This document shows, one piece after another, positions 16,263-27,453 of a DNA stretch of 64,000 bases. Below the pieces are notes generated by a model. That model saw only the letters and a program-made list of their open reading frames with translations. It did not search any database and was not told where the DNA came from. The stretch is taken from contig CAYSCM010000001.1 of the NCBI GenBank assembly GCA_964429815.1, positions 320,001 through 384,000 of the forward strand, in the 5' to 3' direction. Within the stretch, counting starts at the first letter, position 1. Every line of letters begins with the position of its first letter. This DNA is from an uncultured Candidatus Saccharibacteria bacterium. Lineage in GTDB: Bacteria > Patescibacteriota > Minisyncoccia > Phycocordibacterales > CAYSCM01. Made by a program: the position numbers and the translations under genes.

Positions 16263-16333
16263 TTGCGGGATCGTCTAATGGTAGGACACCAGGTTCTGGC
16301 CCTGGTAATCTAGGTTCGAGCCCTAGTCCCGCA
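16263..16333 (+). tRNA. tRNA-Gln (CUG)
   Basis: UGCGGGA...CCAGG-UUCUGGC-CCUGG...CUAGG-UUCGAGC-CCUAG-UCCCGCA-G; U1:A72 as in bacterial tRNA-Gln. Confidence 0.85.
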
Positions 16334-16447
16334 GCAGCAGTCAGCGCAGTATCGTGCGAGACCGGAGAGCCTCAGAACTCAAAGGTCCGCCGATTCGCTG
16401 AATGTACTATTCCGTTATTGCATATCCGGTGAGTCCGGTATTCAGAA

Positions 16448-16493: not shown

Positions 16494-17825
16494 CTAGAGA
16501 TATCTTTTTGCTTTTAATGTGATTCTGGTTTTAAGAGTTCCTAGCAGTTCACGCTTCTCAAGAACATCGCCTTCTGTCAGGACATGTCTCACATAATGCC
16601 GTGCATCGAAGTGTTCCTCGACACGCTGCGGTGATTGCTGCCCCAAGAACATTCTTTGGAATTTCTTAGCTCGGGCGCGTTCCTCCTCAAATTTCTTGCG
16701 AATTATCGGCTCATTGAGTTCTAATTTATCTATCTGCTCTATGAGTTGTCGGACAAGCTCCTCTTCGCGAATGTAACCGGCGGCTCTACAGGCGCGATCC
16801 TTTGAGCGATTGCATCCGTAGTACAGGTACGTGGCAGTCGTGCCCGTGCTTTTGATGAGTTTGTGCTTCTCCTCGGCGCAGACACCCGAGCCGCACGCTC
16901 CGCAGGTGATGAGTCGTGTGAAGGCGAACTCCTTGGACTCACCGCGCACAATTCTGTCGCGCTTGAGTTGTGCCAGCACCTTTTCATACAGTTCACGGGT
17001 GATTATCGGTTCGTGTTTGCCCGTGTACCATTTGCCGCTCCCGATTGGGTACTCAAACTGTCCGAAGTAGAACGGCGTCTGCAGGATTTTGTAAATGTTA
17101 CTCAAAGTCAGAGGCTTATTGCTCGTTGCGCTTCGGAAATTCATATCGAACTTGAGCCAGTGATAGAGCTTTTGCCCAGACCATTTCTCGTATGCGACCT
17201 TCTCGAACATCTGCCGAACGACTGGTGCACGGTCGGGGTCGACCATGACGTACCCCTTCCGGTCGACACGTTTCTCGTTGAGGTAGCCGGTCGGCGCAGG
17301 CGCAGGCCATAAGCCCATCTCACAGCGCATGCGGAGGCCTCGCTTCACATTCACACTTTTGTTGTCGTTCTCAAGCTTTGCCTGACTGCACAAAATCATG
17401 AGAAGAAATTTCTCACTCGGTGAATTTGTGAACTTCTGGCCGTATGTTCGGATCTCGACGAGAAGTTTTTGGTCCATCAAGTCCACCAGACTCCCGAGGT
17501 CGCCTGCGTTGCGGCTCAGGCGGTCTGGGTTCCAGGTGAGTACACCGTTGAACCGTCCGGAGCGGATGTCTTTGAGAATCTCATTGAACACAGGCCGCTG
17601 GCCGGAGTCCTTCGCAGAGTGTGCTTCACGCCGGATGTCCACGATCTCGATGCCATCACGCTCCGCGATCTCGAGCATTTCCTTCACCTGAGAGTCGATG
17701 GACAGTGCCTGTTTTTCGCTCGTGTCCTCAGTCGACTTTCGAGCGTAGAGTACATACTTAACTGGTACTGCTAATTGCGGCACGAAAGTGCCTGGAGCTC
17801 TAGCCCCTCGGGTTATGGTTTCCAT
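16494..17825 (-). CDS. large serine recombinase (resolvase/integrase family)
   Basis: 443 aa; N-terminal resolvase domain YARKSTEDTSEKQALSIDSQ (catalytic Ser), recombinase domain, zinc-ribbon CGACGSGVC...YYGC. Confidence 0.9.
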   Translation of the reverse strand: METITRGARAPGTFVPQLAVPVKYVLYARKSTEDTSEKQALSIDSQVKEMLEIAERDGIEIVDIRREAHSAKDSGQRPVFNEILKDIRSGRFNGVLTWNPDRLSRNAGDLGSLVDLMDQKLLVEIRTYGQKFTNSPSEKFLLMILCSQAKLENDNKSVNVKRGLRMRCEMGLWPAPAPTGYLNEKRVDRKGYVMVDPDRAPVVRQMFEKVAYEKWSGQKLYHWLKFDMNFRSATSNKPLTLSNIYKILQTPFYFGQFEYPIGSGKWYTGKHEPIITRELYEKVLAQLKRDRIVRGESKEFAFTRLITCGACGSGVCAEEKHKLIKSTGTTATYLYYGCNRSKDRACRAAGYIREEELVRQLIEQIDKLELNEPIIRKKFEEERARAKKFQRMFLGQQSPQRVEEHFDARHYVRHVLTEGDVLEKRELLGTLKTRITLKAKRYL

Positions 17826-17917
17826 ATACCCAAAGGAATGACGCCTCCCGCCAGGAAGTCCAACGTCTAAGTTGGTAACCTTCAGAGCCGATTTGACTTT
17901 GATTCATTTGATGCATT

Positions 17918-18229
17918 ATGATGGTAGGTATGGAAGATTCAGTTTCAGGGTACAAAGCAGTTAAACGGCTCGCGGTAGAGCGGCCTGATTGGCTCCCTAT
18001 CATTCGAGAGTGCTTGAATTTGCGGAAAGAGATTCACAACACTGACTTTGCTGGCGCATGGGTATATCAGCGTCTTCAAGAGAAGGGCGGACCGAAATTT
18101 TCAAATCTGCGTCTTCTTGTTAGCTTTGGCATCTTGAAGAAAGAGGCGACCTCACGCGGTGGTCGACGCGCGTACTACTCCTTCGTCGATCCTGAGGGTG
18201 TCGAGAAAGCATTAAGCGAGCTTTCATAA
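17918..18229 (+). CDS. hypothetical small protein (possible DNA-binding/controller) upstream of methyltransferase
   Basis: 103 aa; ends 5 nt before MTase start. Confidence 0.4.
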   Translation: MMVGMEDSVSGYKAVKRLAVERPDWLPIIRECLNLRKEIHNTDFAGAWVYQRLQEKGGPKFSNLRLLVSFGILKKEATSRGGRRAYYSFVDPEGVEKALSELS

Positions 18230-18233
18230 TTTT

Positions 18234-19331
18234 ATGAAAGTCAAAGTTGCGAACACAAGCCTACACGGCGCAAAGAAAGCGAAAAAAGACGAGTTCTACA
18301 CTCAACTCGTTGATATTGAAAAAGAGCTGAAGCACTACAAAAACCAGTTTCGCGGCAAAGTCGTGTACTGCAACTGTGACGACCCGTTCGAAAGCAACTT
18401 TTTCAAATACTTTGCCGCAAATTTCAACGCGCTTGAGTTGAAAAAACTTATCACGACGAGCTTCGTCAAATCGCCTATCGCTGGTGGGCAGTTGCCGCTT
18501 TTTGAAATGCAGGGGCTAAAACCCGACGGCAAAGAACCGTTTAAAATTGCAATACGGGAGGTCCCAGACGCGGACGGCGACGGTGCAATCAATCTTGATG
18601 ATGTGAAGTATCTACTGCAGCACGACAAGAACACAGCAACCCCGCTGAAAGGAAACGGCGATTTCCGCAGCGATGAATGCATGGAATTTCTTAAAGAGGC
18701 AGACATCGTCGTGACAAACCCGCCATTCTCACTTTTTCGTGAATACATTTCGCAACTGGTAGAACACAACAAAAAATTCCTGATCATCGGCAACATCAAC
18801 GCCGTCACCTACAAAGAAGTGTTCCCTTTGATTAAGGCAAACAAACTATGGCTCGGTGCAAGTATCCATAGTGGGGACCGCGAGTTCCGAGTGCCGGAGG
18901 ACTACCCGCTAAACGCAGCTGGCTACCGAGTTGACAGCGACGGAAACAAATATATTCGCGTCAAAGGTGTGCGCTGGTTTACCAATCTCGATTACGACGA
19001 ACGCCACGACAGCGTTGTGCTTTACAAAAAGTATTCGCCAAAAGAATATCCTAAATACGATAACTACGACGCCATAAATGTGAACAAAACTGTTGATATT
19101 CCCATGGACTATAAAGGCGCTATCGGTGTACCAATTACTTTCCTTGATAAATACAGCCCCGACCAATTTACAATTCTAGGCGCACTAATCTCTGGTCCAC
19201 TTGGACAAGAGCTAGGAGCGACCAAAACAAAACAGATCAGGCCAAACGGAAAAACGACAATGGAATACGGGCCTATTATCAAGACGAAGGGTTATTACGG
19301 AAGGATTGTCATTAAAAATAAAACGCTATGA
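18234..19331 (+). CDS. M.EcoRI-family N6-adenine DNA methyltransferase
   Basis: 365 aa; N-terminus KKAKKDEFYTQ...KVVYCNCDDP...FFKYFA and IVVTNPPFS (motif IV); collinear with M.EcoRI as recalled. Confidence 0.9.
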   Translation: MKVKVANTSLHGAKKAKKDEFYTQLVDIEKELKHYKNQFRGKVVYCNCDDPFESNFFKYFAANFNALELKKLITTSFVKSPIAGGQLPLFEMQGLKPDGKEPFKIAIREVPDADGDGAINLDDVKYLLQHDKNTATPLKGNGDFRSDECMEFLKEADIVVTNPPFSLFREYISQLVEHNKKFLIIGNINAVTYKEVFPLIKANKLWLGASIHSGDREFRVPEDYPLNAAGYRVDSDGNKYIRVKGVRWFTNLDYDERHDSVVLYKKYSPKEYPKYDNYDAINVNKTVDIPMDYKGAIGVPITFLDKYSPDQFTILGALISGPLGQELGATKTKQIRPNGKTTMEYGPIIKTKGYYGRIVIKNKTL

Positions 19332-20419
19332 AAATCGAGCTACAAAAAATAAAAATACGCGATGTCGTGAATGGCTACAAAGACAGCGCCGAGGAAGGCG
19401 TCGTAGCGTATGGTGGTAAGCTCGATATTCGTCCAAAGTACCAGCGTGAGTTCATCTACAAAGACAAACAGCGCGATGCGGTGCTTGATACGGTCAAGAA
19501 AGGATTTCCACTCAACGTTATGTATTGGATGGTGCGGGAGGACGGCGGTTATGAAGTGCTCGACGGCCAACAGCGCACCATCAGCATCGGCCAGTATGTC
19601 AATGGTGATTTCTCGCTCGGCGACCGCTATTTCCACAATCTCATCAAGGAGGAGCAAGAGCAGATTTTGAGCTACGAGCTGATGATTTATTTCTGTGAGG
19701 GCACAGATAAGGAACGGCTCGACTGGTTTAGGACAATCAACATCGCGGGCGAAAAGTTAACAGACCAAGAGCTTCGCAATGCTGTATACACTGGCCCTTG
19801 GCTTTCAGACGCAAAACTCAAATTCAGCAAGACGGGCTGTGCTGCCTATCACTTGGCAAACGACGGTGGGGCGCTCGTCAGTGGCTCGCCGATCCGACAG
19901 GAGTATTTGGAAACTGCACTCTCATGGATAAACAAGGGTGAGGTTGCGGCCTACATGGCGAAGCATCAGCATGACAAAGACGCTGAGAAACTATGGACTT
20001 ACTTCCAAGACGTAATTGGGTGGGCGCGAAAGACGTTCCCCAACTACCGCAAGGAAATGGCGCATGTGAACTGGGGTGAACTATACAATGAGTTCAAAGA
20101 CAAGAAACTGAATGCCGCCAAACTCGAAACCGAAGTCAAGAAACTAATGCAGGACGAGGATGTAACGAAAAAGTCCGGCATCTATCCGTATGTTTTGACC
20201 GGCAACGAGCGCGAACTTTCTATCCGCGCGTTCACCGACAAAATGAAGCGCGAGGCATACGAGCGACAAGACGGCGTCTGTCCGTTTTGCAAAAAGAAGT
20301 TTGACGTTTCAGAAATGGAAGCCGACCACATCACGCCATGGCATGAGGGCGGAAAAACAACAGCTGAAAACTGCCAGATGCTCTGCAAGCAAGATAACCG
20401 GACAAAGTCCGGGAAATGA
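19328..20419 (+). CDS. DUF262 (ParB-like nuclease-fold) protein with C-terminal HNH endonuclease domain
   Basis: 363 aa; IRPKYQREF and DGQQRT DUF262 motifs; C-terminal CPFCKKKF...ADHITPWHEGG...NCQMLCKQDN HNH; start overlaps MTase stop (ATGA). Confidence 0.85.
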   Translation: MKIELQKIKIRDVVNGYKDSAEEGVVAYGGKLDIRPKYQREFIYKDKQRDAVLDTVKKGFPLNVMYWMVREDGGYEVLDGQQRTISIGQYVNGDFSLGDRYFHNLIKEEQEQILSYELMIYFCEGTDKERLDWFRTINIAGEKLTDQELRNAVYTGPWLSDAKLKFSKTGCAAYHLANDGGALVSGSPIRQEYLETALSWINKGEVAAYMAKHQHDKDAEKLWTYFQDVIGWARKTFPNYRKEMAHVNWGELYNEFKDKKLNAAKLETEVKKLMQDEDVTKKSGIYPYVLTGNERELSIRAFTDKMKREAYERQDGVCPFCKKKFDVSEMEADHITPWHEGGKTTAENCQMLCKQDNRTKSGK

Positions 20420-20476: not shown

Positions 20477-21184
20477 ATGATAGAGCTACCATCTTGGCTT
20501 AAGATTGGAAAAATAATCGAAAAACTCGATTTCTCCAATTGGTTTAGTCGCCAGTTAAGAGATGATCAGCGTAAGTATGTGGGTGGGGACTACATCGAGA
20601 AAGTGGAAATACATAACCACGCTCCTTCAGGCACCATCGAGGAAGATCCGCTGGCCAGAGGACTGTATACGCTTGGTTTGGAAAGACGGCAGGTAGACAC
20701 GTACGGGGGCTTCTTCAATAGTTTTTATCTAGAAGTAGAGAAGAGACGGGAGCGTCAAATAACGAGAAGTGCTCATACCATGCTATTGGGTGCGGTTTTT
20801 GCCGTCGGGACAAAGTATCAAAACAATCCTGAGTGGAAAGAACACTGCTCATCGTCATTACGTGAAATATTCCACGAGTGGAGTGGCCCAGATGAATTCA
20901 GGCGGGACCTTGTTTCTGTCTACAACCACAGCAACGCAAAAGGAGGGCTTGCAACAGACGAGGAGGATAGTCTAACGTCATTTTGGCTTCTGTATCGATA
21001 TTTCTCTAGTATAGATCATCATCAAGCATCCGGAATACTGCACGCTCTACGCGCATTTCTTAGAGATAGCTCGCTTAAAATCGAGGACTGCGTGAATGAC
21101 GATATTTTTATTGAGAGAGCAAAAGATTTCTTCTCACATTTATCTCGTATTTCTGAAATCGCAAAGAAACGTACTGAACCATGA
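20477..21184 (+). CDS. hypothetical protein (no recognisable domain), upstream partner of 998-aa protein
   Basis: 235 aa; stop overlaps next start (ATGA). Confidence 0.6.
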   Translation: MIELPSWLKIGKIIEKLDFSNWFSRQLRDDQRKYVGGDYIEKVEIHNHAPSGTIEEDPLARGLYTLGLERRQVDTYGGFFNSFYLEVEKRRERQITRSAHTMLLGAVFAVGTKYQNNPEWKEHCSSSLREIFHEWSGPDEFRRDLVSVYNHSNAKGGLATDEEDSLTSFWLLYRYFSSIDHHQASGILHALRAFLRDSSLKIEDCVNDDIFIERAKDFFSHLSRISEIAKKRTEP

Positions 21185-24177
21185 ACCAGATCGAATTACA
21201 CAACAGGATAGATGAGTACATTGCTCACGGCCCAGGGAAGGCTGCATGGACGGCTGTAAAAAAAATAACTGAGATTCACCTCGACGTGAAGAAGTATTTT
21301 TATACTAGAGCCGATGAAAAGTGGTTTGACTTGGTACGCGGAGATATTCTGAATGTGGCGAAGACAAAAGCTAGTGATCCCACGAAATACTCATATCAAA
21401 CGCCTGAGCTTGATTATTTGGCTCGGGTGGCTGAGATAATTCCACAGAAGGTCACTAAACTCATTTTAGACACTTCCATATCTAAAGAGAACTTCAATCC
21501 AGAAGTGGTTGATCGTTTTCTTTGGATTTCGAGCAAATTGCCCGCCGACCAACTTAAACGAGTAGTCGTGAAAATCCGCGATGATCAATGGATTCAACTT
21601 ATGGCGCCTTTCAATAGGTGGGTTTTTGAATATCAAAAGATGTTCGAGACGCTTGCAGTTGCCAAGGACCAGGACAGCATACTTATCCTTGCGGAAGCGG
21701 TTTTGCGGACACGTTCAAAGGATGAGCTGGCAAAGATTAACAATGGGATATCGACGGACAATCCCTTCTTCCTTTCAGACCTCAGCGAAACAGACATTTT
21801 CAGTCTTCTTGCCTCTTCTGATGATAAACATCTAGATGCTGCTCTTCGGGTCGCAACTAATGCACTCGCGGGCGTTATCAGGACTGGCGATCGAGAAGAT
21901 AACGTTTTTGAAATCGGTGAGATTTTTCACCTCTTTGATGTTGACTTTTTTTCTCTTGAATTGGGCAAGGGCCGACATTATTCACATAGAGATGAGGTCA
22001 GAGAACTGGCAGCCGTTGTCAAAACACTCGTGAATCGCTCTATTGGTAAGAGCTGCAACGATTCAAAAGAGACTCGCCGGATCTACGAACACATAGAACG
22101 TTTGCCGGATAGTCGATCCATGTGGCGACTGCGGCTCTATGTCTGGAGTCTGTGTCCGAAGGTGTTCAAGGACGAATTACAGACTGCATTTTTCAAGGGC
22201 CTAGAGTCGCGAGAAATGTTATGGCCAATTACAGGCGGTGCGGAATACGATCACGCTCTTAAAAGGTGTTTTGATGTTGTTCTGTCCGAGGAGGACCGGA
22301 AGGCATATATTCAACGTGCCTTTGAGATACTTGACGTGAATGAAGAGCACCCATACGGCTACGGTATATTTGCCAGTATCCAAAGGCATCTGTCAGAACC
22401 GCAGAAGCAGCGGGTGGAAGCCCTCTACAAGATGCCGCTTGATCCAAATTATACGCCTGAGCCTAGCGTAGGTCATTCGTATGCCGGCACAATAGTTTCG
22501 CAGTCACCCAAGGAGGCAGATGATGTCTGGGGAAAGCCGGTTCCGGAGATTGTACAAGCTCTAGAAACCCGCTTGACGCCGGAGCAACTACAAAAGATAG
22601 ACGGTAGGAAAGATTTTCTAAAACCGGTAAACGCAGAGGGGGTGGCGGATAAAATGCGGTCACAAATGAAAGAACGCACGAGTGAATATACCGCCAACGC
22701 GACTTTGTTTTTCGATAGAAAACTAATGGATCCACACTACACCTACTCCTTCTTCCGTGGCGTGGATGAGATTATTCGCTTGCATCGAGAAAAAGTGTCA
22801 GAAATAAACTGGCAGCAGATTATTGCGCTTGGTGTCGCAATTACGAAAGAAGGACAACGAGAGTCTTTTGATTTCACTAAGCGAGAAAGGGAGCACTTCG
22901 ATGCCTGGCTCGCAGGATGGATTGGTGTACACGACGGCCTCGGAGATGTTTTGCAGGATTATCTCCGAAATGATAACGGAATCACTGAGGAGTCCTTCAA
23001 TAAGAACCGGGAGGATCTTTTCAAGATTATTTGCTACCTACTCACCATACCGGATCCGGTTCCTAAGGACGAGCAACCTGAAACGGCTGGCATGACTACC
23101 ACGCCGCCCGGCGGAGAGAAATTAGTGAGCGATCCTTTCGCGATAGCCATTAACTCGGTTCGCGGCCGAGCATATCAAGCGTTCGTAATGTTTATGGAGT
23201 GGGATGGGCGTAAGTATGCGAAGGACGCAAAAGTGAAGCTATCTCCAGATGTATTGCAAGAGTACAAGGATCTTTTAGCGCGTGAAAATACCGGCGCAAT
23301 TTTCTTCATGTACGGACACTATCTACCGTTTTTCTACTTCCGCGATGTTAAGGAAGTCCGAAAGCTCCTCCCGCAAATATTTACGAGCGACAGTAAAAAG
23401 GTTCATCTGTATCTCGCGGCGTGGGAGGGTTATCTGACTCGTAGTCTCTATCGAGAGATGTTTGTCCAGCTACAGGGTGAATACGAACGAGCAATCAAAA
23501 ATAATCCTGACTCTTATCCGAAAAGAAATTACCGTGCAGACCTTGACGAAGCATTAGCAACTCATATGGCATTGGCGTACATCCACTTCGAGGATTTCAC
23601 GCTTGATTCAAGTCTGTTCAAACTTTTTTGGAGCACTCCAAACCAAAAGAGGTATCAAGAGTTTGTATCATTCATCGGACGCTATGTGATCTCGAAAGAT
23701 CATGCAAAGGAGAATCTCGCTGAAAATCCTGAGATCAAACTTTCTAAGCTTATTGACTTCTGGGATTGGACGCTTGAATACGTTAATGACCCGGATGTAT
23801 TTGCCGAATATGGTTTCTGGATGGATACAACCGGTGGTTTATATGACGATGTAACGGCACTTGCCCGAAGGATTCAGAAAACACTCAAAAAATCTAAAGG
23901 TAAAGTCGACTGGGAGATTAAGCTAATGGATTCGCTCCCGACGTTGGCGGCAGCAGTCCCCAAGGACACACTGGAGATTTTACGACTTTATCTCAAACCA
24001 CTTGATGTGAGCCCACGCAGTCGACACTTCATGCATGTCGACGCCGACCTTGTAAATATTTTCAGGACGCTGCATAAGAATCCAGAGACTCAAGACGAGA
24101 CTTATAAGTTGATCGACGAACTCCTGCCGTTGGGGAATGGGGTGTATTGGAAGTTGAAGGAGGCCTTAACGGAGTAG
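21181..24177 (+). CDS. large hypothetical protein (998 aa), predicted alpha-helical, no NTPase or nuclease motifs recognised
   Basis: Uninterrupted 3 kb ORF in lower-GC island; Trp/Tyr-rich; no Walker A. Confidence 0.7.
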   Translation: MNQIELHNRIDEYIAHGPGKAAWTAVKKITEIHLDVKKYFYTRADEKWFDLVRGDILNVAKTKASDPTKYSYQTPELDYLARVAEIIPQKVTKLILDTSISKENFNPEVVDRFLWISSKLPADQLKRVVVKIRDDQWIQLMAPFNRWVFEYQKMFETLAVAKDQDSILILAEAVLRTRSKDELAKINNGISTDNPFFLSDLSETDIFSLLASSDDKHLDAALRVATNALAGVIRTGDREDNVFEIGEIFHLFDVDFFSLELGKGRHYSHRDEVRELAAVVKTLVNRSIGKSCNDSKETRRIYEHIERLPDSRSMWRLRLYVWSLCPKVFKDELQTAFFKGLESREMLWPITGGAEYDHALKRCFDVVLSEEDRKAYIQRAFEILDVNEEHPYGYGIFASIQRHLSEPQKQRVEALYKMPLDPNYTPEPSVGHSYAGTIVSQSPKEADDVWGKPVPEIVQALETRLTPEQLQKIDGRKDFLKPVNAEGVADKMRSQMKERTSEYTANATLFFDRKLMDPHYTYSFFRGVDEIIRLHREKVSEINWQQIIALGVAITKEGQRESFDFTKREREHFDAWLAGWIGVHDGLGDVLQDYLRNDNGITEESFNKNREDLFKIICYLLTIPDPVPKDEQPETAGMTTTPPGGEKLVSDPFAIAINSVRGRAYQAFVMFMEWDGRKYAKDAKVKLSPDVLQEYKDLLARENTGAIFFMYGHYLPFFYFRDVKEVRKLLPQIFTSDSKKVHLYLAAWEGYLTRSLYREMFVQLQGEYERAIKNNPDSYPKRNYRADLDEALATHMALAYIHFEDFTLDSSLFKLFWSTPNQKRYQEFVSFIGRYVISKDHAKENLAENPEIKLSKLIDFWDWTLEYVNDPDVFAEYGFWMDTTGGLYDDVTALARRIQKTLKKSKGKVDWEIKLMDSLPTLAAAVPKDTLEILRLYLKPLDVSPRSRHFMHVDADLVNIFRTLHKNPETQDETYKLIDELLPLGNGVYWKLKEALTE

Positions 24178-24397: not shown

Positions 24398-24424
24398 ACC
24401 TATAAGCGTCTATTCCGTTATGGG

Positions 24425-24443
24425 ATATTCCAAAATGGAATAT
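24425..24443. promoter_or_regulatory. perfect palindromic operator atattcca-aaa-tggaatat in divergent XRE/nuclease promoter region
   Basis: 8-bp perfect inverted repeat with 3-bp spacer, 28 nt upstream of XRE start. Confidence 0.6.
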
Positions 24444-24527: not shown

Positions 24528-24995
24528 ATGGACCCTATATCCAATAACAAGCGTAATACCATCCTTACCGGCGTCTCCGGCGAGTACTACGTCGCCGCTG
24601 AACTTTCGCGTCGTGGATACCTCGCCTCTATCACACTTCGCAACACCAAAGGCGTAGACATCCTCTGCTCAAACGCGGAGGCGAGTAAATCTGTAGGTAT
24701 CCAGGTAAAGGCAAAGTCGGGTAATGATCGTGTATGGATTCTCAACGAGAAAGGAGAACATTACTACGCGAACAATCTCTTTTACGTTTTTATCAACATC
24801 GACGACGGTCTCAACAAGCATCCTGAGTACACGGTCGTGCCCAGTAAGGTAGTTGCCGAGTACGCTCGCGAGTCGCACGCGAGGTGGTTAAGCGAACCGA
24901 AGAAGGACGGCAGCGCTCGCAAAGACACGACTATGCGGAAGTTTCAGGATCCGGAGGAGAAGTATCTTGGTCGGTGGGATCTGTTGGGTCTTTGA
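24528..24995 (+). CDS. PD-(D/E)xK-fold nuclease-like protein (YraN/Hjc-like motif)
   Basis: 155 aa; GVSGEYYVAAELSRRGY...RNTKGVDILC resembles GxxGE...GEIDLIA core. Confidence 0.5.
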   Translation: MDPISNNKRNTILTGVSGEYYVAAELSRRGYLASITLRNTKGVDILCSNAEASKSVGIQVKAKSGNDRVWILNEKGEHYYANNLFYVFINIDDGLNKHPEYTVVPSKVVAEYARESHARWLSEPKKDGSARKDTTMRKFQDPEEKYLGRWDLLGL

Positions 24996-25560
24996 ATTCG
25001 TTCCCGTATTTCTCATTCAACCTCTCGAGTGTCTTTTTGCTAATAACGATCTGCCCGTTTTCGTCTGAAAATGCTTCAATTAGGTCTTGTTTTCTCTGTC
25101 TCTCAACTTCGTCAAGGAATTTCTTCAACGAAGCCTCTCTGACAAGTAACTTCCCGTCGGGGCCGGTGAACATCCTCCGCAATTTCTTCAGGTCGATTTC
25201 CATCTGGTAGTCGGGACCGAATTCCTCATAGTCGTCGAACTTATCCATGAGCGGTATCTTCTCCTCCTCGCCGCGAAGCTTCGGGCTGTAGAACTTGCTG
25301 TTGTGCGTGAGGAAGAATTTGGAGTCCGCCTTGTCCCCGTTGTTGATCCCTTTGATGATGTTCGACTCCGCCTTCTCGCTCACGGCCTCCCGGCTCACTC
25401 TCCGCACGGTTTCCGCGGCCCGCTTGAATTCCGGGTCGTCGTGCATCCACCGGTATATGGTCATGCGCGTAACGTCGACCTTTCGCGCGGCCGTGCCGAT
25501 AAACGGCGTGGTCTCCAACGCCTTGAGGAATTCCTCGCGTTTATCGGCACCGTGCGTCAT
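24931..25560 (-). CDS. phage terminase small subunit-like HTH protein
   Basis: 209 aa; N-terminal HTH GTAARKVDVTRMTIYRWMHDDPEF; acidic C-terminus; 3' end overlaps the convergent gene by 65 nt. Confidence 0.5.
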   Translation of the reverse strand: MTHGADKREEFLKALETTPFIGTAARKVDVTRMTIYRWMHDDPEFKRAAETVRRVSREAVSEKAESNIIKGINNGDKADSKFFLTHNSKFYSPKLRGEEEKIPLMDKFDDYEEFGPDYQMEIDLKKLRRMFTGPDGKLLVREASLKKFLDEVERQRKQDLIEAFSDENGQIVISKKTLERLNEKYGNEFKDPTDPTDQDTSPPDPETSA

Positions 25561-25563
25561 AAA

Positions 25564-26925
25564 CTAGCCGATCTTCACGCGCTTCTTGCCTGTGAACTTC
25601 TCCCAGCGATTGAGAATTACTTCGGCGTACACAGGTGATTTCTCAATCAGGAAACAACGCCGACCAAGCGTGATGGATGCGATGAGCGTCGACCCGCTCC
25701 CGCCGAACGGCTCAAGCACGAGCTGCCCGCGCTTCGTGAGCGTCTTGATGTACGGCACGAGAATCTCGATCGGTTTTACGCCGAAGATGATCGCTTGGCC
25801 TGAAGATTTTTCATCAGCGGCATTGAACTCGATGAAATCGGTCGGGCAGTATTTCTTGTCTTTGCCGTAGCTCTCCCAGTGTGCGCCCTTGCCGTCAATG
25901 GCAAAGAGTGCCGTTTGGTACTCGTTCTCGTACAACTCCTGTTCGTTCTCGAGATTCAGACCGCTGTACTCCTCGCTCGTGCCGACCATCGCGATGTCGT
26001 GCTTGGAGAAGAACTTATTGCGCCCCGCGTATCCTTGGTTGCGGTTCGGCAAGTGCCACACGATCATATTGCGCACCTTCCAGTGCTTTTCCATCTCACT
26101 CCAGATTTCGCGAATGTTCTTCCAGTTTTCGTAGCAGATGATTGAGAAGTCCTTATTCGCAACTTTCGCAACATTGCTCATCCATTTCTCGGTGAAATCG
26201 GCTGGCAATGATTCTGTTTCAAGATAGCGACGGTTCTTCTTCGAGCCGAACCCAACCGTTGGCTCGCCATTGCGGGTCTTGCCTTTGAGGTAGTCCAGCC
26301 GATACGGAGGGTCCGTCATAACCATGTCCGCCTTTTCGGACATGAGCTTGAGCACATCTTCTTCGATAGTGCTGTCCCCACAGAGAAGCCGCGAACCGTC
26401 GAGCTCGTACACGTCGCCCTTCCGCACACCGATTGTTTTGATGTCGAGCTTTTTGAGCTCTTTCTCAAGTGAGAATTCCGCCTCCGTAGAATCTTCCTCA
26501 AAGATGTTGTCGAGTTCTTCGGAATCGAAGCCGACAGCCTCAAGGAATGCTTCGTCGAACTCGGCGAGCAACAGGTCGTAATCCCACTCACCGACAGCCT
26601 TGTTGAGGCGGAGGCAGAGGTCCTTCTCTTTTTCGATATCGGCAATGTGGACGAAGACGCACGGCACCTCCTTGTACCCGAGATCTTTCATGACTTCGAA
26701 GCGGAGGTTGCCGCCAATAATGACGTTCTCGCGCTCCTTGGCGCGGTTTACTACAAGGGGATCAACACTTCCATGCCGCTCAAGACTCTCGCGCACGGGC
26801 TTCTTCGTGTCATCGTTGACCAAACGAGGATTATATTCGGCGTGCTTAAGGCTGGTAATGGGAACATATTCGACCCACAGTTTGTGAGCCGTATCCGCAG
26901 AGACTGCGACAGTGTTTTTAGTCAT
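25564..26925 (-). CDS. ParB-like nuclease domain fused to DNA N6/N4 methyltransferase (phage-type)
   Basis: 453 aa; ParB N-terminal domain (VPCVFVH, GGNLRFE), then MTDPPY (motif IV) and C-terminal PFGGSGST (motif I): beta-class order. Confidence 0.85.
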   Translation of the reverse strand: MTKNTVAVSADTAHKLWVEYVPITSLKHAEYNPRLVNDDTKKPVRESLERHGSVDPLVVNRAKERENVIIGGNLRFEVMKDLGYKEVPCVFVHIADIEKEKDLCLRLNKAVGEWDYDLLLAEFDEAFLEAVGFDSEELDNIFEEDSTEAEFSLEKELKKLDIKTIGVRKGDVYELDGSRLLCGDSTIEEDVLKLMSEKADMVMTDPPYRLDYLKGKTRNGEPTVGFGSKKNRRYLETESLPADFTEKWMSNVAKVANKDFSIICYENWKNIREIWSEMEKHWKVRNMIVWHLPNRNQGYAGRNKFFSKHDIAMVGTSEEYSGLNLENEQELYENEYQTALFAIDGKGAHWESYGKDKKYCPTDFIEFNAADEKSSGQAIIFGVKPIEILVPYIKTLTKRGQLVLEPFGGSGSTLIASITLGRRCFLIEKSPVYAEVILNRWEKFTGKKRVKIG

Positions 26926-27012
26926 ATGGTTACGACTATTAACGAATAATAGGAGACGCTATGCCTCCTGTATGTAGTAGTCGCCGGAAAATCGGAGTTT
27001 AATACCCGCCCC

Positions 27013-27453
27013 TCACAGCTCCAATCCTGCGGGATATACTCGATTGGTTATGTAGGTATCACGCCCCGCGCGGCGGCGGAGGTCCTTTATTCCGTTTTTG
27101 AGAATGCTAAGAACGTATGTACGCGGCGCTGCGCCATTTTTGTGCTTGAAATTGAGCTTCGCGTTGATAAGCCGCAACTTCAGTTCGCTTTCTATATCAT
27201 CGGGGTCAAGATCTGGAACCCACTCGTATTCAGCAATCTTTCTGATGTCCGCGCTATATTGCAAATAGAGTTTAAAATTCGGTGCCATGCAATGGATTCT
27301 ACAACCGGTGTTCGAGTAAAAGGTGCCAGGCGAGAACGCAAAAATCTCCAATGACCCTAAATGAAGCATTCGAGATTTTTGAAAACGGTGGATAACTGAT
27401 TTGACGGGTTTTCGCAAAACTCTTGAGTGTCGTAACATTCGTATCATTTTCAA
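27013..27453 (-). CDS. hypothetical protein
   Basis: 146 aa ORF in AT-richer DNA; no motif recognised. Confidence 0.3.
   Translation of the reverse strand: MKMIRMLRHSRVLRKPVKSVIHRFQKSRMLHLGSLEIFAFSPGTFYSNTGCRIHCMAPNFKLYLQYSADIRKIAEYEWVPDLDPDDIESELKLRLINAKLNFKHKNGAAPRTYVLSILKNGIKDLRRRAGRDTYITNRVYPAGLEL

Follow-up and report, generated by a model that had tools for sequence, protein, structure and literature searches.

A probable BanLI-type restriction-modification pair, an EcoRI-family methylase with a DUF262-HNH nuclease, on a likely genomic island of a Saccharibacteria bacterium

In the window (the whole stretch of DNA that was analysed, 64,000 nucleotides from an uncultured Candidatus Saccharibacteria bacterium), an EcoRI-family N6-adenine DNA methyltransferase is followed on the same strand by a nuclease that joins an N-terminal DUF262 domain to a C-terminal HNH domain. 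The locus is very likely a true restriction-modification (R-M) pair of the BanLI-type family. The methylase-then-nuclease unit is obligately co-inherited across bacteria, plasmids and phages. The sequence-only reading had left two accounts of the pair standing. Comparison of related loci strongly supports the first, a true R-M pair whose DUF262-HNH enzyme is restrained by adenine methylation. It all but rules out the second, in which a type IV enzyme has merely hitch-hiked with an orphan methylase, since the nuclease was found with the methylase in 128/128 testable loci and the methylase also occurs alone.

Gene order and domains

Three ORFs lie on the + strand at the positions at which they had been read before. 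ORF103 (17918-18229, 103 aa), a small winged-helix protein and candidate regulator, comes first in the presumed operon and is separated by 4 nt from the ATG of the methylase (18234-19331, 365 aa). The stop codon of the methylase and the start codon of the nuclease (19328-20419, 363 aa), the restriction subunit, share ATGA (ctATGAaa) at 19328-19331, the 4-nt overlap noted earlier. The tight spacing and overlap, a promoter-like site at 17893-17922 and a search that found no + strand terminator-like site between the genes suggest that ORF103, methylase and nuclease are co-transcribed. ORF235 and ORF998 were considered as parts of the module and rejected, being present in 0/80 genome loci.

The methylase matched the Pfam model EcoRI_methylase (PF13651) with an E-value of 5.2e-149 and 496.7 bits (cut-off 26.4) over model positions 2-345 of 345, and the PADLOC model MTase_II with an E-value of 3e-129. 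In BLASTP it was collinear with, and 46% identical to, the authentic M.EcoRI of the EcoRI plasmid NZ_OW967970 (E=2e-103). The N-terminal DEFYTQ and CNCDDP blocks and the catalytic NPPF motif (aa 162-165, nt 18717-18728) all align with M.EcoRI, which bears out the collinearity claimed from the strings KKAKKDEFYTQ, VVYCNCDDP and IVVTNPPFS, each of them present. Compared with M.EcoRI, the window methylase has extra segments and another C-terminal cassette. A PDB sequence search with the methylase found no solved structure of any EcoRI-family methylase. The likeness to the EcoRI system ends with the methylase. R.EcoRI is a PD-(D/E)XK nuclease unrelated to the DUF262-HNH partner, and in the EcoRI system the nuclease gene precedes the methylase gene, whereas here it follows. 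An EcoRI-type endonuclease is encoded neither within the 64-kb window nor in any related locus.

Pfam bore out the two-domain architecture that had been read from the nuclease sequence: aa 34-154 matched GmrSD_N/DUF262 (E=2.9e-17), and aa 318-361 matched HNH PF01844 (E=9.9e-13). A helical middle part lies between them. The C-terminus is a PF01844/PF14279 HNH domain with a Cys4 Zn ribbon, and a PDB HNH structure (4h9d) aligns over aa 315-360. No Pfam match was obtained to DUF1524 (PF07510), and none to ResIII, helicase or PD-(D/E)XK domains. The fold is ParB/Srx plus HNH, the DUF262 part being a ParB/Srx-like NTPase fold, and resembles BrxU, SspE and DndI.

The DUF262 nucleotide-binding motifs (+ strand, 19442-19576) are Q39-R40 (19442-19447) and D79-G-Q-Q-R83 (19562-19576); the HNH active site and Zn ribbon (+ strand, 20279-20398) comprise C318, C321, D333-H334, N348, C349, C353 and N357. 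Across a 56-sequence alignment of diverse homologues Q39, R40, D79, G80, R83, C318 and N348 are invariant, and Q81, Q82 and H334 are at least 90% conserved. The remaining residues were taken from the alignment blocks and the sequence of the window. Two of these, D333 and N357, fill out the HNH motif of the window nuclease and are absent from the list of conserved columns. With DUF262 and HNH motif residues invariant or at least 90% conserved, the active sites of the nuclease look intact. In BrxU the residues equivalent to the DUF262 motifs bind and hydrolyse NTP (PMC8565348).

Annotation pipelines name the homologues "GmrSD restriction endonuclease domain-containing protein" or "McrA", and the sequence-only reading likewise saw in the nuclease the domain logic of GmrSD/BrxU type IV enzymes. 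Part of that comparison holds: GmrSD and BrxU also carry an N-terminal DUF262 with QR and DGQQR motifs and a C-terminal His-Me finger nuclease. In other respects they differ. Their C-terminal domain is DUF1524 whereas the window nuclease ends in a Zn-ribbon HNH (PF01844) and is about 200 residues shorter, and in 128 loci the nuclease was never without the methylase. This constant coupling implies that its polarity towards modification is presumably inverted relative to GmrSD/BrxU. The PADLOC model REase_II (PDLC03418), labelled as a type II restriction enzyme, matched the whole protein (1-363 against 1-372 of 372, E=2.7e-140). The source enzyme of that model is not stated in the PADLOC paper or in a later user paper.

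Island setting and ORF103

Several features of the surrounding DNA indicate that the pair is likely the cargo of a mobile element integrated next to a tRNA-Gln gene (16264-16335, + strand, by ARAGORN), the probable integration site adjoining the island. A large serine recombinase (16494-17825, - strand) with Pfam Resolvase, Recombinase and Zn_ribbon_recom domains is the likely integrase, and homologues of it were found near the methylase-nuclease pair in about 13/80 loci. Between 18 and 24 kb the GC content is 43-50%, down from 52-59%. An imperfect 19-nt direct repeat (17/19 matches; left copy 16407-16425 on the + strand, right copy 24410-24428) offers a possible but weak indication of the ends of an 8.0-kb island, as the flanks of the two copies do not align and the match could be due to chance.

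In front of ORF103 lies a promoter-like cassette (17893-17922, + strand) with a -35 TTGACT (17893-17898), an 18-nt spacer and a -10 TATGAT (17917-17922). In a consensus scan it has 10/12 matches, in a region where the count of promoter matches is not above chance. The block TTGAC..N17-18..TATGAT..ATG is conserved in 7 loci with differing sequence to either side of it. Because the -10 box overlaps the first ATG, the true start of ORF103 is probably the ATG at 17930, the mRNA then having no leader or almost none. A search upstream for an inverted-repeat operator turned up no convincing candidate, and the loci had only the promoter block in common.

ORF103 had been put forward as a possible controller of the pair. 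As a pair-specific controller it was rejected, since it accompanies the pair in 0/80 genome loci and 0/63 viral loci. The broader suggestion fared better. ORF103 has a winged-helix fold, not an XRE-type one (Pfam matched no HTH domain in it), and its close homologues stand first in R-M operons of various kinds, among them type I, IIG, ISP-like and type II, with the conserved promoter in front, which makes a new controller class plausible. The C proteins of type II R-M systems are the obvious comparison. Like them, ORF103 is small, has a DNA-binding fold, stands first in its operon and is tightly coupled to the next gene; C.PvuII is made from a leaderless transcript, and so, probably, is ORF103. 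Unlike ORF103, C proteins have an XRE-type helix-turn-helix, with which they bind a C-box, and the homologues of ORF103 are not tied to type II operons. Among the relatives of the window pair, 11/69 have an XRE-type, C-protein-like gene in front of the methylase.

Linkage of the pair and its kinship with BanLI

Whether DUF262-HNH nucleases recur next to M.EcoRI-like genes could be answered from related loci whose nucleases are 36-84% identical. In 128/128 of the testable ones both genes are on one strand and the methylase comes first, namely in 76/76 genome loci (among the best 80) and in 52/52 viral-contig loci (36-81% identity), and the two genes mostly overlap or are 1-20 nt apart. The nuclease without the methylase was seen in 0 of these 128. 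The pair is carried by plasmids of cultured Aeromonas, Ruania and Rhodococcus and by Flavobacterium phage laban6-1, usually with a 4-nt overlap. The family extends to more than 576 genomes at species level, and the best 80 are 72-84% identical across phyla. A 688-aa protein fuses both enzymes; it is a single cluster representative and could be an artefact of one misassembled nucleotide where the genes meet at ATGA. Where the two genes are separated, the gap is a hotspot for defence-type cargo (RhuM, Fic, AAA_21 and T5orf172).

The association is unequal in its losses. The nuclease is frameshifted or truncated beside an intact methylase in five loci, the methylase stands without the nuclease in 6/8 viral loci, and the methylase family also occurs with R.EcoRI on E. 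coli plasmids. The reverse, a decayed methylase beside an intact nuclease, was met once at most, on the Microbacterium sp. No. 7 plasmid (L183), where IS256 splits the methylase next to an intact nuclease ORF. Nuclease decay beside intact methylases, together with solitary methylases, is the asymmetry expected of an R-M system.

The pair is real, and its unusualness had been overstated in the sequence-only reading: PADLOC has a type II model for the nuclease, PGAP annotates the pair on many plasmids and one cultured phage, and a system that is very probably of this kind has been published. BanLI of Bifidobacterium animalis subsp. lactis, described in 2014, consists of an integrase, an EcoRI-like methylase of 41.7 kDa and an R gene product of 43.5 kDa (PMC3990576). 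M.BanLI methylates RTC(m6A)GG on one strand only, and its methylation improves plasmid transformation. The cloned methylase and nuclease weakly restrict unmodified P1 phage in E. coli, with an efficiency of plating of about 0.1, and the authors regarded BanLI as a crippled type IIS system (PMC3990576). R.BanLI is annotated as a DUF262 protein (PMC13091528), and REBASE lists BanLI as type II.

Based on annotation, gene order and protein size, BanLI is very probably of the same kind as the window pair. An integrase or recombinase, an EcoRI-like methylase and a DUF262 R gene follow in the same order, the GC content is below that of the host, the sizes of both enzymes are as in the window, and that of R.BanLI matches a large actinobacterial clade of 388-390-aa homologues. 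No Bifidobacterium-named nuclease homologue was among the best 120 matches to a profile of three actinobacterial homologues, and a B. breve megaplasmid yielded only a short solitary EcoRI-family methylase. Family-wide data suggest that a single methylase is the normal state of BanLI-type systems. A literature search found no paper describing the family-wide pairing of an EcoRI-like methylase with a DUF262-HNH nuclease.

The variable cassette and the source of specificity

The most variable part of the methylase is a C-terminal cassette of aa 316-352 (19179-19289, + strand), flanked by conserved NPxQFEI and YxRIxIKNK. Column identity is 0.02-0.12 in the cassette compared with 0.75-0.94 in the core blocks of the methylase. 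The cassettes of 69 loci fall into 32 discrete classes that are mutually unalignable and 16-61 aa long, and their identity distribution is bimodal. A second variable segment, aa 205-245, co-varies with the cassette. This pattern is what leads us to presume that the cassette is a target-recognition module, one that appears to be swappable between methylases. M.EcoRI's own cassette is present in five loci; their second variable segment differs from that of M.EcoRI, so the two variable regions are not one fixed unit. The window cassette is 8% identical to that of M.EcoRI, and the BanLI target RTCAGG need not apply to it. Its class is shared only with the loci L008 and, apparently, L003.

The nuclease behaves differently. 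It has no variable segment and is uniformly conserved, with a mean identity of 77% compared with 63% for the methylase, and it is the more conserved partner in 98% of 2346 pairs. Its identity is 0.767 within and 0.761 between cassette classes. Such uniformity, whatever the cassette class of the partner, suggests that the methylase guides the targeting, as in type III systems. Word avoidance was assessed by observed/expected ratios (O/E) of every 5- and 6-mer and of the palindromic 4- and 6-mers, with GAATTC, RAATTY, AATT and RTCAGG among the words covered. No avoided word stood out as a recognition site, either in 820 kb of host flanks plus the window or, separately, in the five loci with the M.EcoRI cassette. 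The O/E values were 1.00 for AATT, 0.87 for GAATTC and 0.93-0.99 for RTCAGG, the BanLI target thus showing no avoidance in the host; within the window alone GAATTC gave 0.79 from small counts.

The mechanism that we propose is as follows. The methylase would mark host DNA with m6A at its target, and the nuclease would cut DNA that lacks the mark and would be harmful without the methylase. Sequence specificity would reside only in the methylase, in its swappable C-terminal cassette, and the uniform nuclease would be recruited by, or work through, the methylase, its ParB/Srx-like domain probably gating cleavage by NTP. The pair would then follow the logic of type III Mod/Res built from different parts, rather than that of two enzymes independently reading one site. 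Type III systems share the mod-then-res order, a variable module, here a presumed recognition module, confined to the methylase and a conserved NTPase-nuclease partner, and they methylate one strand of an asymmetric site, as the characterised relative BanLI does. Their Res, however, is an SF2 helicase-like ATPase with PD-(D/E)XK, not a ParB/Srx-like fold with HNH, and their Mod belongs to a different methylase family. SspE and DndI, which sense phosphorothioate, are likewise DUF262 NTPases with a nuclease that form the restriction arm of a host DNA-modification system. In their case the modification is phosphorothioation by a multi-gene pathway rather than base methylation by a single methylase, and their nuclease domain differs from the window's HNH. 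Taken as a whole, a BanLI-type R-M module carried as island cargo, with the methylase-guided mechanism included, has in our judgement an even chance of being correct.

The chief competitor is an orthodox type II system in which nuclease and methylase read the same site independently. All close relatives would then share one specificity, and the cassette, rather than determining specificity, would be a surface loop that tolerates change or a segment under selection of another kind. This is a substantial possibility that falls somewhat short of even. The family is classed as type II by PADLOC and in annotation that derives from REBASE, the strong and uniform conservation of the nuclease fits one fixed specificity, C-protein-like genes such as those in 11/69 loci are typical of type II systems, and the M.EcoRI cassette recurs beside a second segment unlike that of M.EcoRI. 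Against these points, 32 unalignable classes with a co-varying second segment look like exchangeable recognition modules, and specificities within the methylase family already differ between GAATTC for M.EcoRI and RTCAGG for M.BanLI. The conserved NTP-binding motifs of the nuclease would have no role in such an enzyme, and the one-strand methylation by M.BanLI would leave one daughter duplex unprotected from it.

Two further explanations are much less probable. It is unlikely that the pair is a selfish cassette that serves addiction or mobility rather than defence, in which the HNH protein is mainly a post-segregational killer or a homing-type endonuclease and the methylase its antidote. Very high conservation across phyla and residence on plasmids, phages and recombinase islands do point to frequent horizontal transfer, and BanLI restricts only about tenfold; but an R-M system can serve addiction and defence at once, the defence-type cargo between the two genes is that of defence islands, and a search for a homing-site signature found none. 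Least probable is a GmrSD-like, modification-dependent type IV nuclease beside an unrelated orphan methylase whose mark is irrelevant to it or avoided. The names given by annotation pipelines speak for this, but the invariable pairing with one methylase family in the same orientation and close spacing, the decay of the nuclease while the methylase persists, the PF01844 HNH in the place of DUF1524, and the behaviour of cloned BanLI towards unmodified P1 and methylated plasmids all speak against it.

A wider reading joins the methylase-guided R-M pair to ORF103. The mechanism of the family would not be that of type II. It would be a hitherto unrecognised NTP-dependent R-M class in which a monomeric EcoRI-family methylase with a swappable cassette is the sole source of specificity, possibly methylating one strand only, and a uniform GmrSD-like NTPase plus HNH subunit serves as "Res", a type IV scaffold of inverted polarity following type III logic. 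ORF103 would represent a new winged-helix controller class that travels with its leaderless promoter and heads at least five R-M operon types in Patescibacteria. We put this joint reading forward tentatively, as it is more likely to fail in some part than to hold in full.

The locus itself is one more, ordinary copy of a catalogued R-M pair. The points that appear to be undescribed concern the family: the swappable cassette, the uniform nuclease that does not track it, and ORF103 as a candidate controller class. Few restriction modules in Patescibacteria/CPR are as widespread and as well conserved as this family, and its nuclease is routinely mislabelled as type IV (GmrSD, McrA) by annotation pipelines. 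Burstein et al. reportedly found in 2016 that CRISPR is largely missing from CPR bacteria. The cassette with ORF103 would provide toxic restriction operons with a regulator that can be moved between them. Should the methylase-guided model be true, DUF262 enzymes would prove to act with either polarity towards DNA modification, there would be an explanation for BanLI's puzzling methylation of one strand and for its weak activity, and the pair would be a compact two-protein system whose specificity is reprogrammable by the swap of a 16-61-aa cassette.

Methylase, nuclease and their genomic setting

Three genes lie head to tail on the plus strand: the winged-helix ORF103 (103 aa, 17918-18229), the 365-aa methylase (18234-19331) and the 363-aa nuclease (19328-20419). 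ORF103 is separated from the methylase by 4 nt, and the methylase-nuclease spacing is -4 nt (junction ctATGAaa). The methylase matches the whole Pfam EcoRI_methylase model (E=5e-149) and is collinear with authentic M.EcoRI at 46% identity, the reference being taken from an EcoRI plasmid, where the order is R.EcoRI then M.EcoRI. The nuclease contains a GmrSD_N/DUF262 domain (aa 34-154) and a classical HNH domain (aa 318-361). Neither the window nor any related locus was found to encode an EcoRI-type endonuclease. These results confirm the pairing proposed by the sequence-only reading, an EcoRI-family methylase with a DUF262-HNH nuclease in place of an EcoRI-type endonuclease.

That reading had also considered that the nuclease might be inactive through loss of the catalytic His or Asn of HNH. 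When the window protein was aligned with 55 homologues (36-95% identity), Q39, R40, D79, G80, R83, N138, Q147, E148, N151, C318, G342 and N348 were invariant, and Q81, Q82 and H334 nearly so. D333 and N357, read in the window protein, complete the H-N-N site. With the nucleotide-binding residues taken as defined in BrxU (PMC8565348), both the nucleotide-binding site and the HNH site look intact. The AlphaFold model built on the 55-homologue alignment is confident (pLDDT 90.9).

Upstream of the three genes are a tRNA-Gln (16264-16335) and a divergent large serine recombinase (16494-17825, minus strand). GC content drops from 52-59% to 43-50% at 18-24 kb, and a 19-nt imperfect direct repeat (17/19; 16407-16425 and 24410-24428) brackets 8.0 kb, from the recombinase to an HTH block, coinciding with the low-GC region. 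The genes are therefore carried on an integrated element. The repeat pair may represent the island ends; long direct repeats are not the usual product of serine recombinases. Downstream of the nuclease is a two-gene unit (20477-21184 and 21181-24177, plus strand, 4-nt overlap) that may represent a further, independent defence candidate carried by this island. Its 235-aa product had no matches, and residues 420-932 of its 998-aa product match the C-terminal part of the PADLOC Dsr1 model (E=7.5e-19), although no SIR2 domain was found in that protein. The unit is missing from all 80 related genome loci, and on plasmids it matched only Legionella, weakly. Also characteristic of mobile elements is a second block (24528-27453), which encodes a 155-aa phrog_29029 protein, a terminase-small-subunit-like HTH protein (24931-25560, minus strand), a ParB_N and N6_N4 methylase fusion (25564-26925, minus strand) and a sigma-70 region 2 protein. 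The ParB-methylase and serine recombinase backbone also flanks ORF103 homologues at two other loci, L083 and L160.

Linkage of the nuclease to EcoRI-type methylases

The nuclease family is large, with at least 8000 scored matches, 522 clusters at 50% identity (E<1e-30) and a presence in more than 576 species-representative genomes; the best 120 of the matches all share 82-100% identity and carry labels from several CPR phyla. Of the 80 best genome loci, 76 have an EcoRI-type methylase upstream on the same strand, and the other four start at a contig edge. In the viral set (63 contigs, nucleases 36-81% identical), 52/52 testable full-length nucleases likewise have such a methylase upstream on the same strand. 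The PGAP-annotated pair also occurs on plasmids of Aeromonas, Mammaliicoccus, Variovorax, Gordonia, Ruania, Rhodococcus and lactobacilli, and in Flavobacterium phage vB_FspS_laban6-1. Among the junctions inspected in cultured examples, most were 4-nt overlaps.

Loss of the two genes is lopsided. Five loci have an intact methylase beside a frameshifted or truncated nuclease, and the methylase family is also found solitary or partnered with R.EcoRI. The sole apparent case of a nuclease without a functional methylase is L183 (Microbacterium sp. No. 7 plasmid B, NZ_CP012699.1, 637-3688), where the N-terminal half of the methylase has been lost to IS256 together with the catalytic motifs, and the DUF262-HNH ORF downstream is undamaged; this nuclease may be silenced by promoter loss or covered by another methylase copy. 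Such asymmetry is the pattern expected of a toxic nuclease and a protective methylase.

Further features were seen among the relatives. A 65-aa XRE-type HTH_3 gene, a classical C-protein-like regulator, lies directly upstream of the methylase in 11/69 (e.g., L007:4753-4950), in the position held by ORF103 in the window. One cluster representative, P0146 (688 aa), joins methylase and nuclease in what appears to be a natural fusion; it may be a genuine type IIC-like enzyme, or the overlapping stop/start may contain a 1-nt assembly error. In about 21 of 76 loci (among them L001, L012, L017, L024, L026, L028, L031, L033, L036, L039, L048, L053, L056, L059, L062, L063, L065, L069, L074 and L075), cargo of 0.45-4.6 kb on the same strand takes the place of the short junction; it encodes T5orf172, DUF2130, RhuM, Fic/DOC, AAA_21/AAA_15 and SMC-like ATPases, and a trypsin-like peptidase. 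Type I R-M loci are known to harbour the same repertoire, and the junction therefore resembles a hotspot at which accessory defence genes insert.

Of the two alternatives raised from the sequence, an R-M pair is borne out by co-inheritance and by the asymmetry. The other, a type IV enzyme hitch-hiking beside an orphan methylase, draws on the domains of the nuclease, and members of an actinobacterial clade are indeed named DUF262, HNH, "GmrSD restriction endonuclease domain-containing protein" or "McrA". Annotation pipelines use the last two names, which systematically misassign an R-M nuclease to type IV; this is the misreading over which the sequence-only reading was cautious. Against the type IV alternative stand the linkage in 76/80 genome and 52/52 viral loci, with a methylase upstream in every testable locus, the asymmetry, the XRE-type genes and the fusion; it is therefore very unlikely.

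The R-M assignment agrees with prior knowledge. The nuclease and PADLOC model PDLC03418 ("Type II restriction enzyme") align over their full lengths (E=2.7e-140). The BanLI system of Bifidobacterium animalis subsp. lactis comprises, in order, an integrase gene, M.BanLI (41.7 kDa), which its authors aligned to M.EcoRI, and R.BanLI (43.5 kDa), at a GC of 50% against 60% in the genome; in E. coli M.BanLI modified 5'-RTC(m6A)GG-3' on one strand only, and cloned methylase and nuclease lowered P1 plating about tenfold (PMC3990576). The REBASE restriction gene for BanLI is annotated "DUF262 domain-containing protein" (2026 paper, PMC13091528). Searching with a profile of actinobacterial plasmid copies recovered a second tightly conserved nuclease clade (P0343-P0462), whose members have 388-390 aa, matching R.BanLI in size, and are 70-86% identical across Mycobacterium, Gordonia, Microbacterium, Streptomyces and Cellulomonas; no Bifidobacterium-named match was among the matches listed. 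Both systems have a recombinase or integrase, then an EcoRI-like methylase, then a DUF262 nuclease. On this basis of gene order, sizes and annotation, we infer that the window locus is a further member of the already-known BanLI kind.

ORF103 as a candidate controller

The 69 ORF103 homologues aligned (45-88% identity) indicate a real gene, and none carries a Pfam domain; ORF103 belongs to a winged-helix family without one. In every context sampled, an R-M-type operon follows directly after the close homologue in the same direction, and in all cases but one the two overlap or are within a few nt of each other. At least five operon types are headed in this way: type I hsdR-M-S (L153), an MmeI-type IIG enzyme (L157), an Eco57I/TaqI_C-type enzyme (L165), an N6_N4 methylase with a HinfI-type endonuclease (L168), an SNF2 helicase with a type ISP-like methylase (L160), an SNF2 helicase operon (L083) and a methylase-ATPase-ResIII operon (L154). 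Distant homologues (53-59% identity) are not at the head of such operons. The family members carry a conserved promoter-like block ahead of the ATG (in the window, block and ORF103 span 17893-18229): seven loci have TTGACT-N17/18-TATGAT in common and an ATG at most about 7 nt after the -10 box; this spacing implies an ORF103 start at 17930 and a leaderless message in the window. Operon position and conserved promoter thus make ORF103 look like a portable promoter-plus-regulator cassette, and suggest a portable controller for restriction operons. The controller role proposed earlier is plausible on these grounds, but it is not specific to this pair (ORF103 is beside it in 0/80 genome loci) and the fold is non-classical.

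A modular methylase with a uniform nuclease

We compared 69 loci with complete methylase and nuclease genes. Mean pairwise identity was 77% for the nuclease versus 63% for the methylase, the nuclease being higher in 98% of 2346 pairs, and the divergences of the two were weakly correlated (rho=0.22). Methylase conservation is a mosaic of core blocks (0.75-0.94), variable stretches at aa 91-135 and 211-240, and a hypervariable segment at aa 316-345 (0.02-0.12), whereas the nuclease stays at 0.6-0.95 along its full length. The hypervariable cassette, 16-61 aa long, is flanked by conserved NPxQFEI and YxRIxIKNK and forms 32 discrete classes; 2165 pairs share less than 30% identity and 78 share at least 50%. 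Every larger class is common to loci from differently labelled genomes. Methylase aa 205-245 co-varies with cassette class (0.64 within versus 0.40 between), whereas nuclease identity is independent of it (0.767 versus 0.761). Even an M.EcoRI-like cassette (50-94% identical, five loci) is still partnered with the DUF262-HNH nuclease. Exchangeable target-recognition modules of type I, type III and type IIG enzymes show the same pattern, and the cassette looks like such a module.

If the cassette sets the target sequence, a nuclease that stays the same across cassette classes could have no matched recognition of its own and would have to work through the methylase. We favour this type III-like logic, in which a ParB/Srx-NTPase-HNH subunit would take the place of the type III partner; the conserved NTP-binding motifs of the nuclease, the methylase-then-nuclease gene order and the one-strand methylation by BanLI (PMC3990576) are consistent with it. 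An orthodox type II system, in which the cassette has no bearing on specificity, is a serious rival. Word avoidance was uninformative as to the target sequence, with no recognition word recovered. The window pair is an ordinary member of a catalogued, mechanistically unstudied family; its interest lies in the combination, across that family, of a modular methylase with an invariant GmrSD-like nuclease, and also in the ORF103 cassette.
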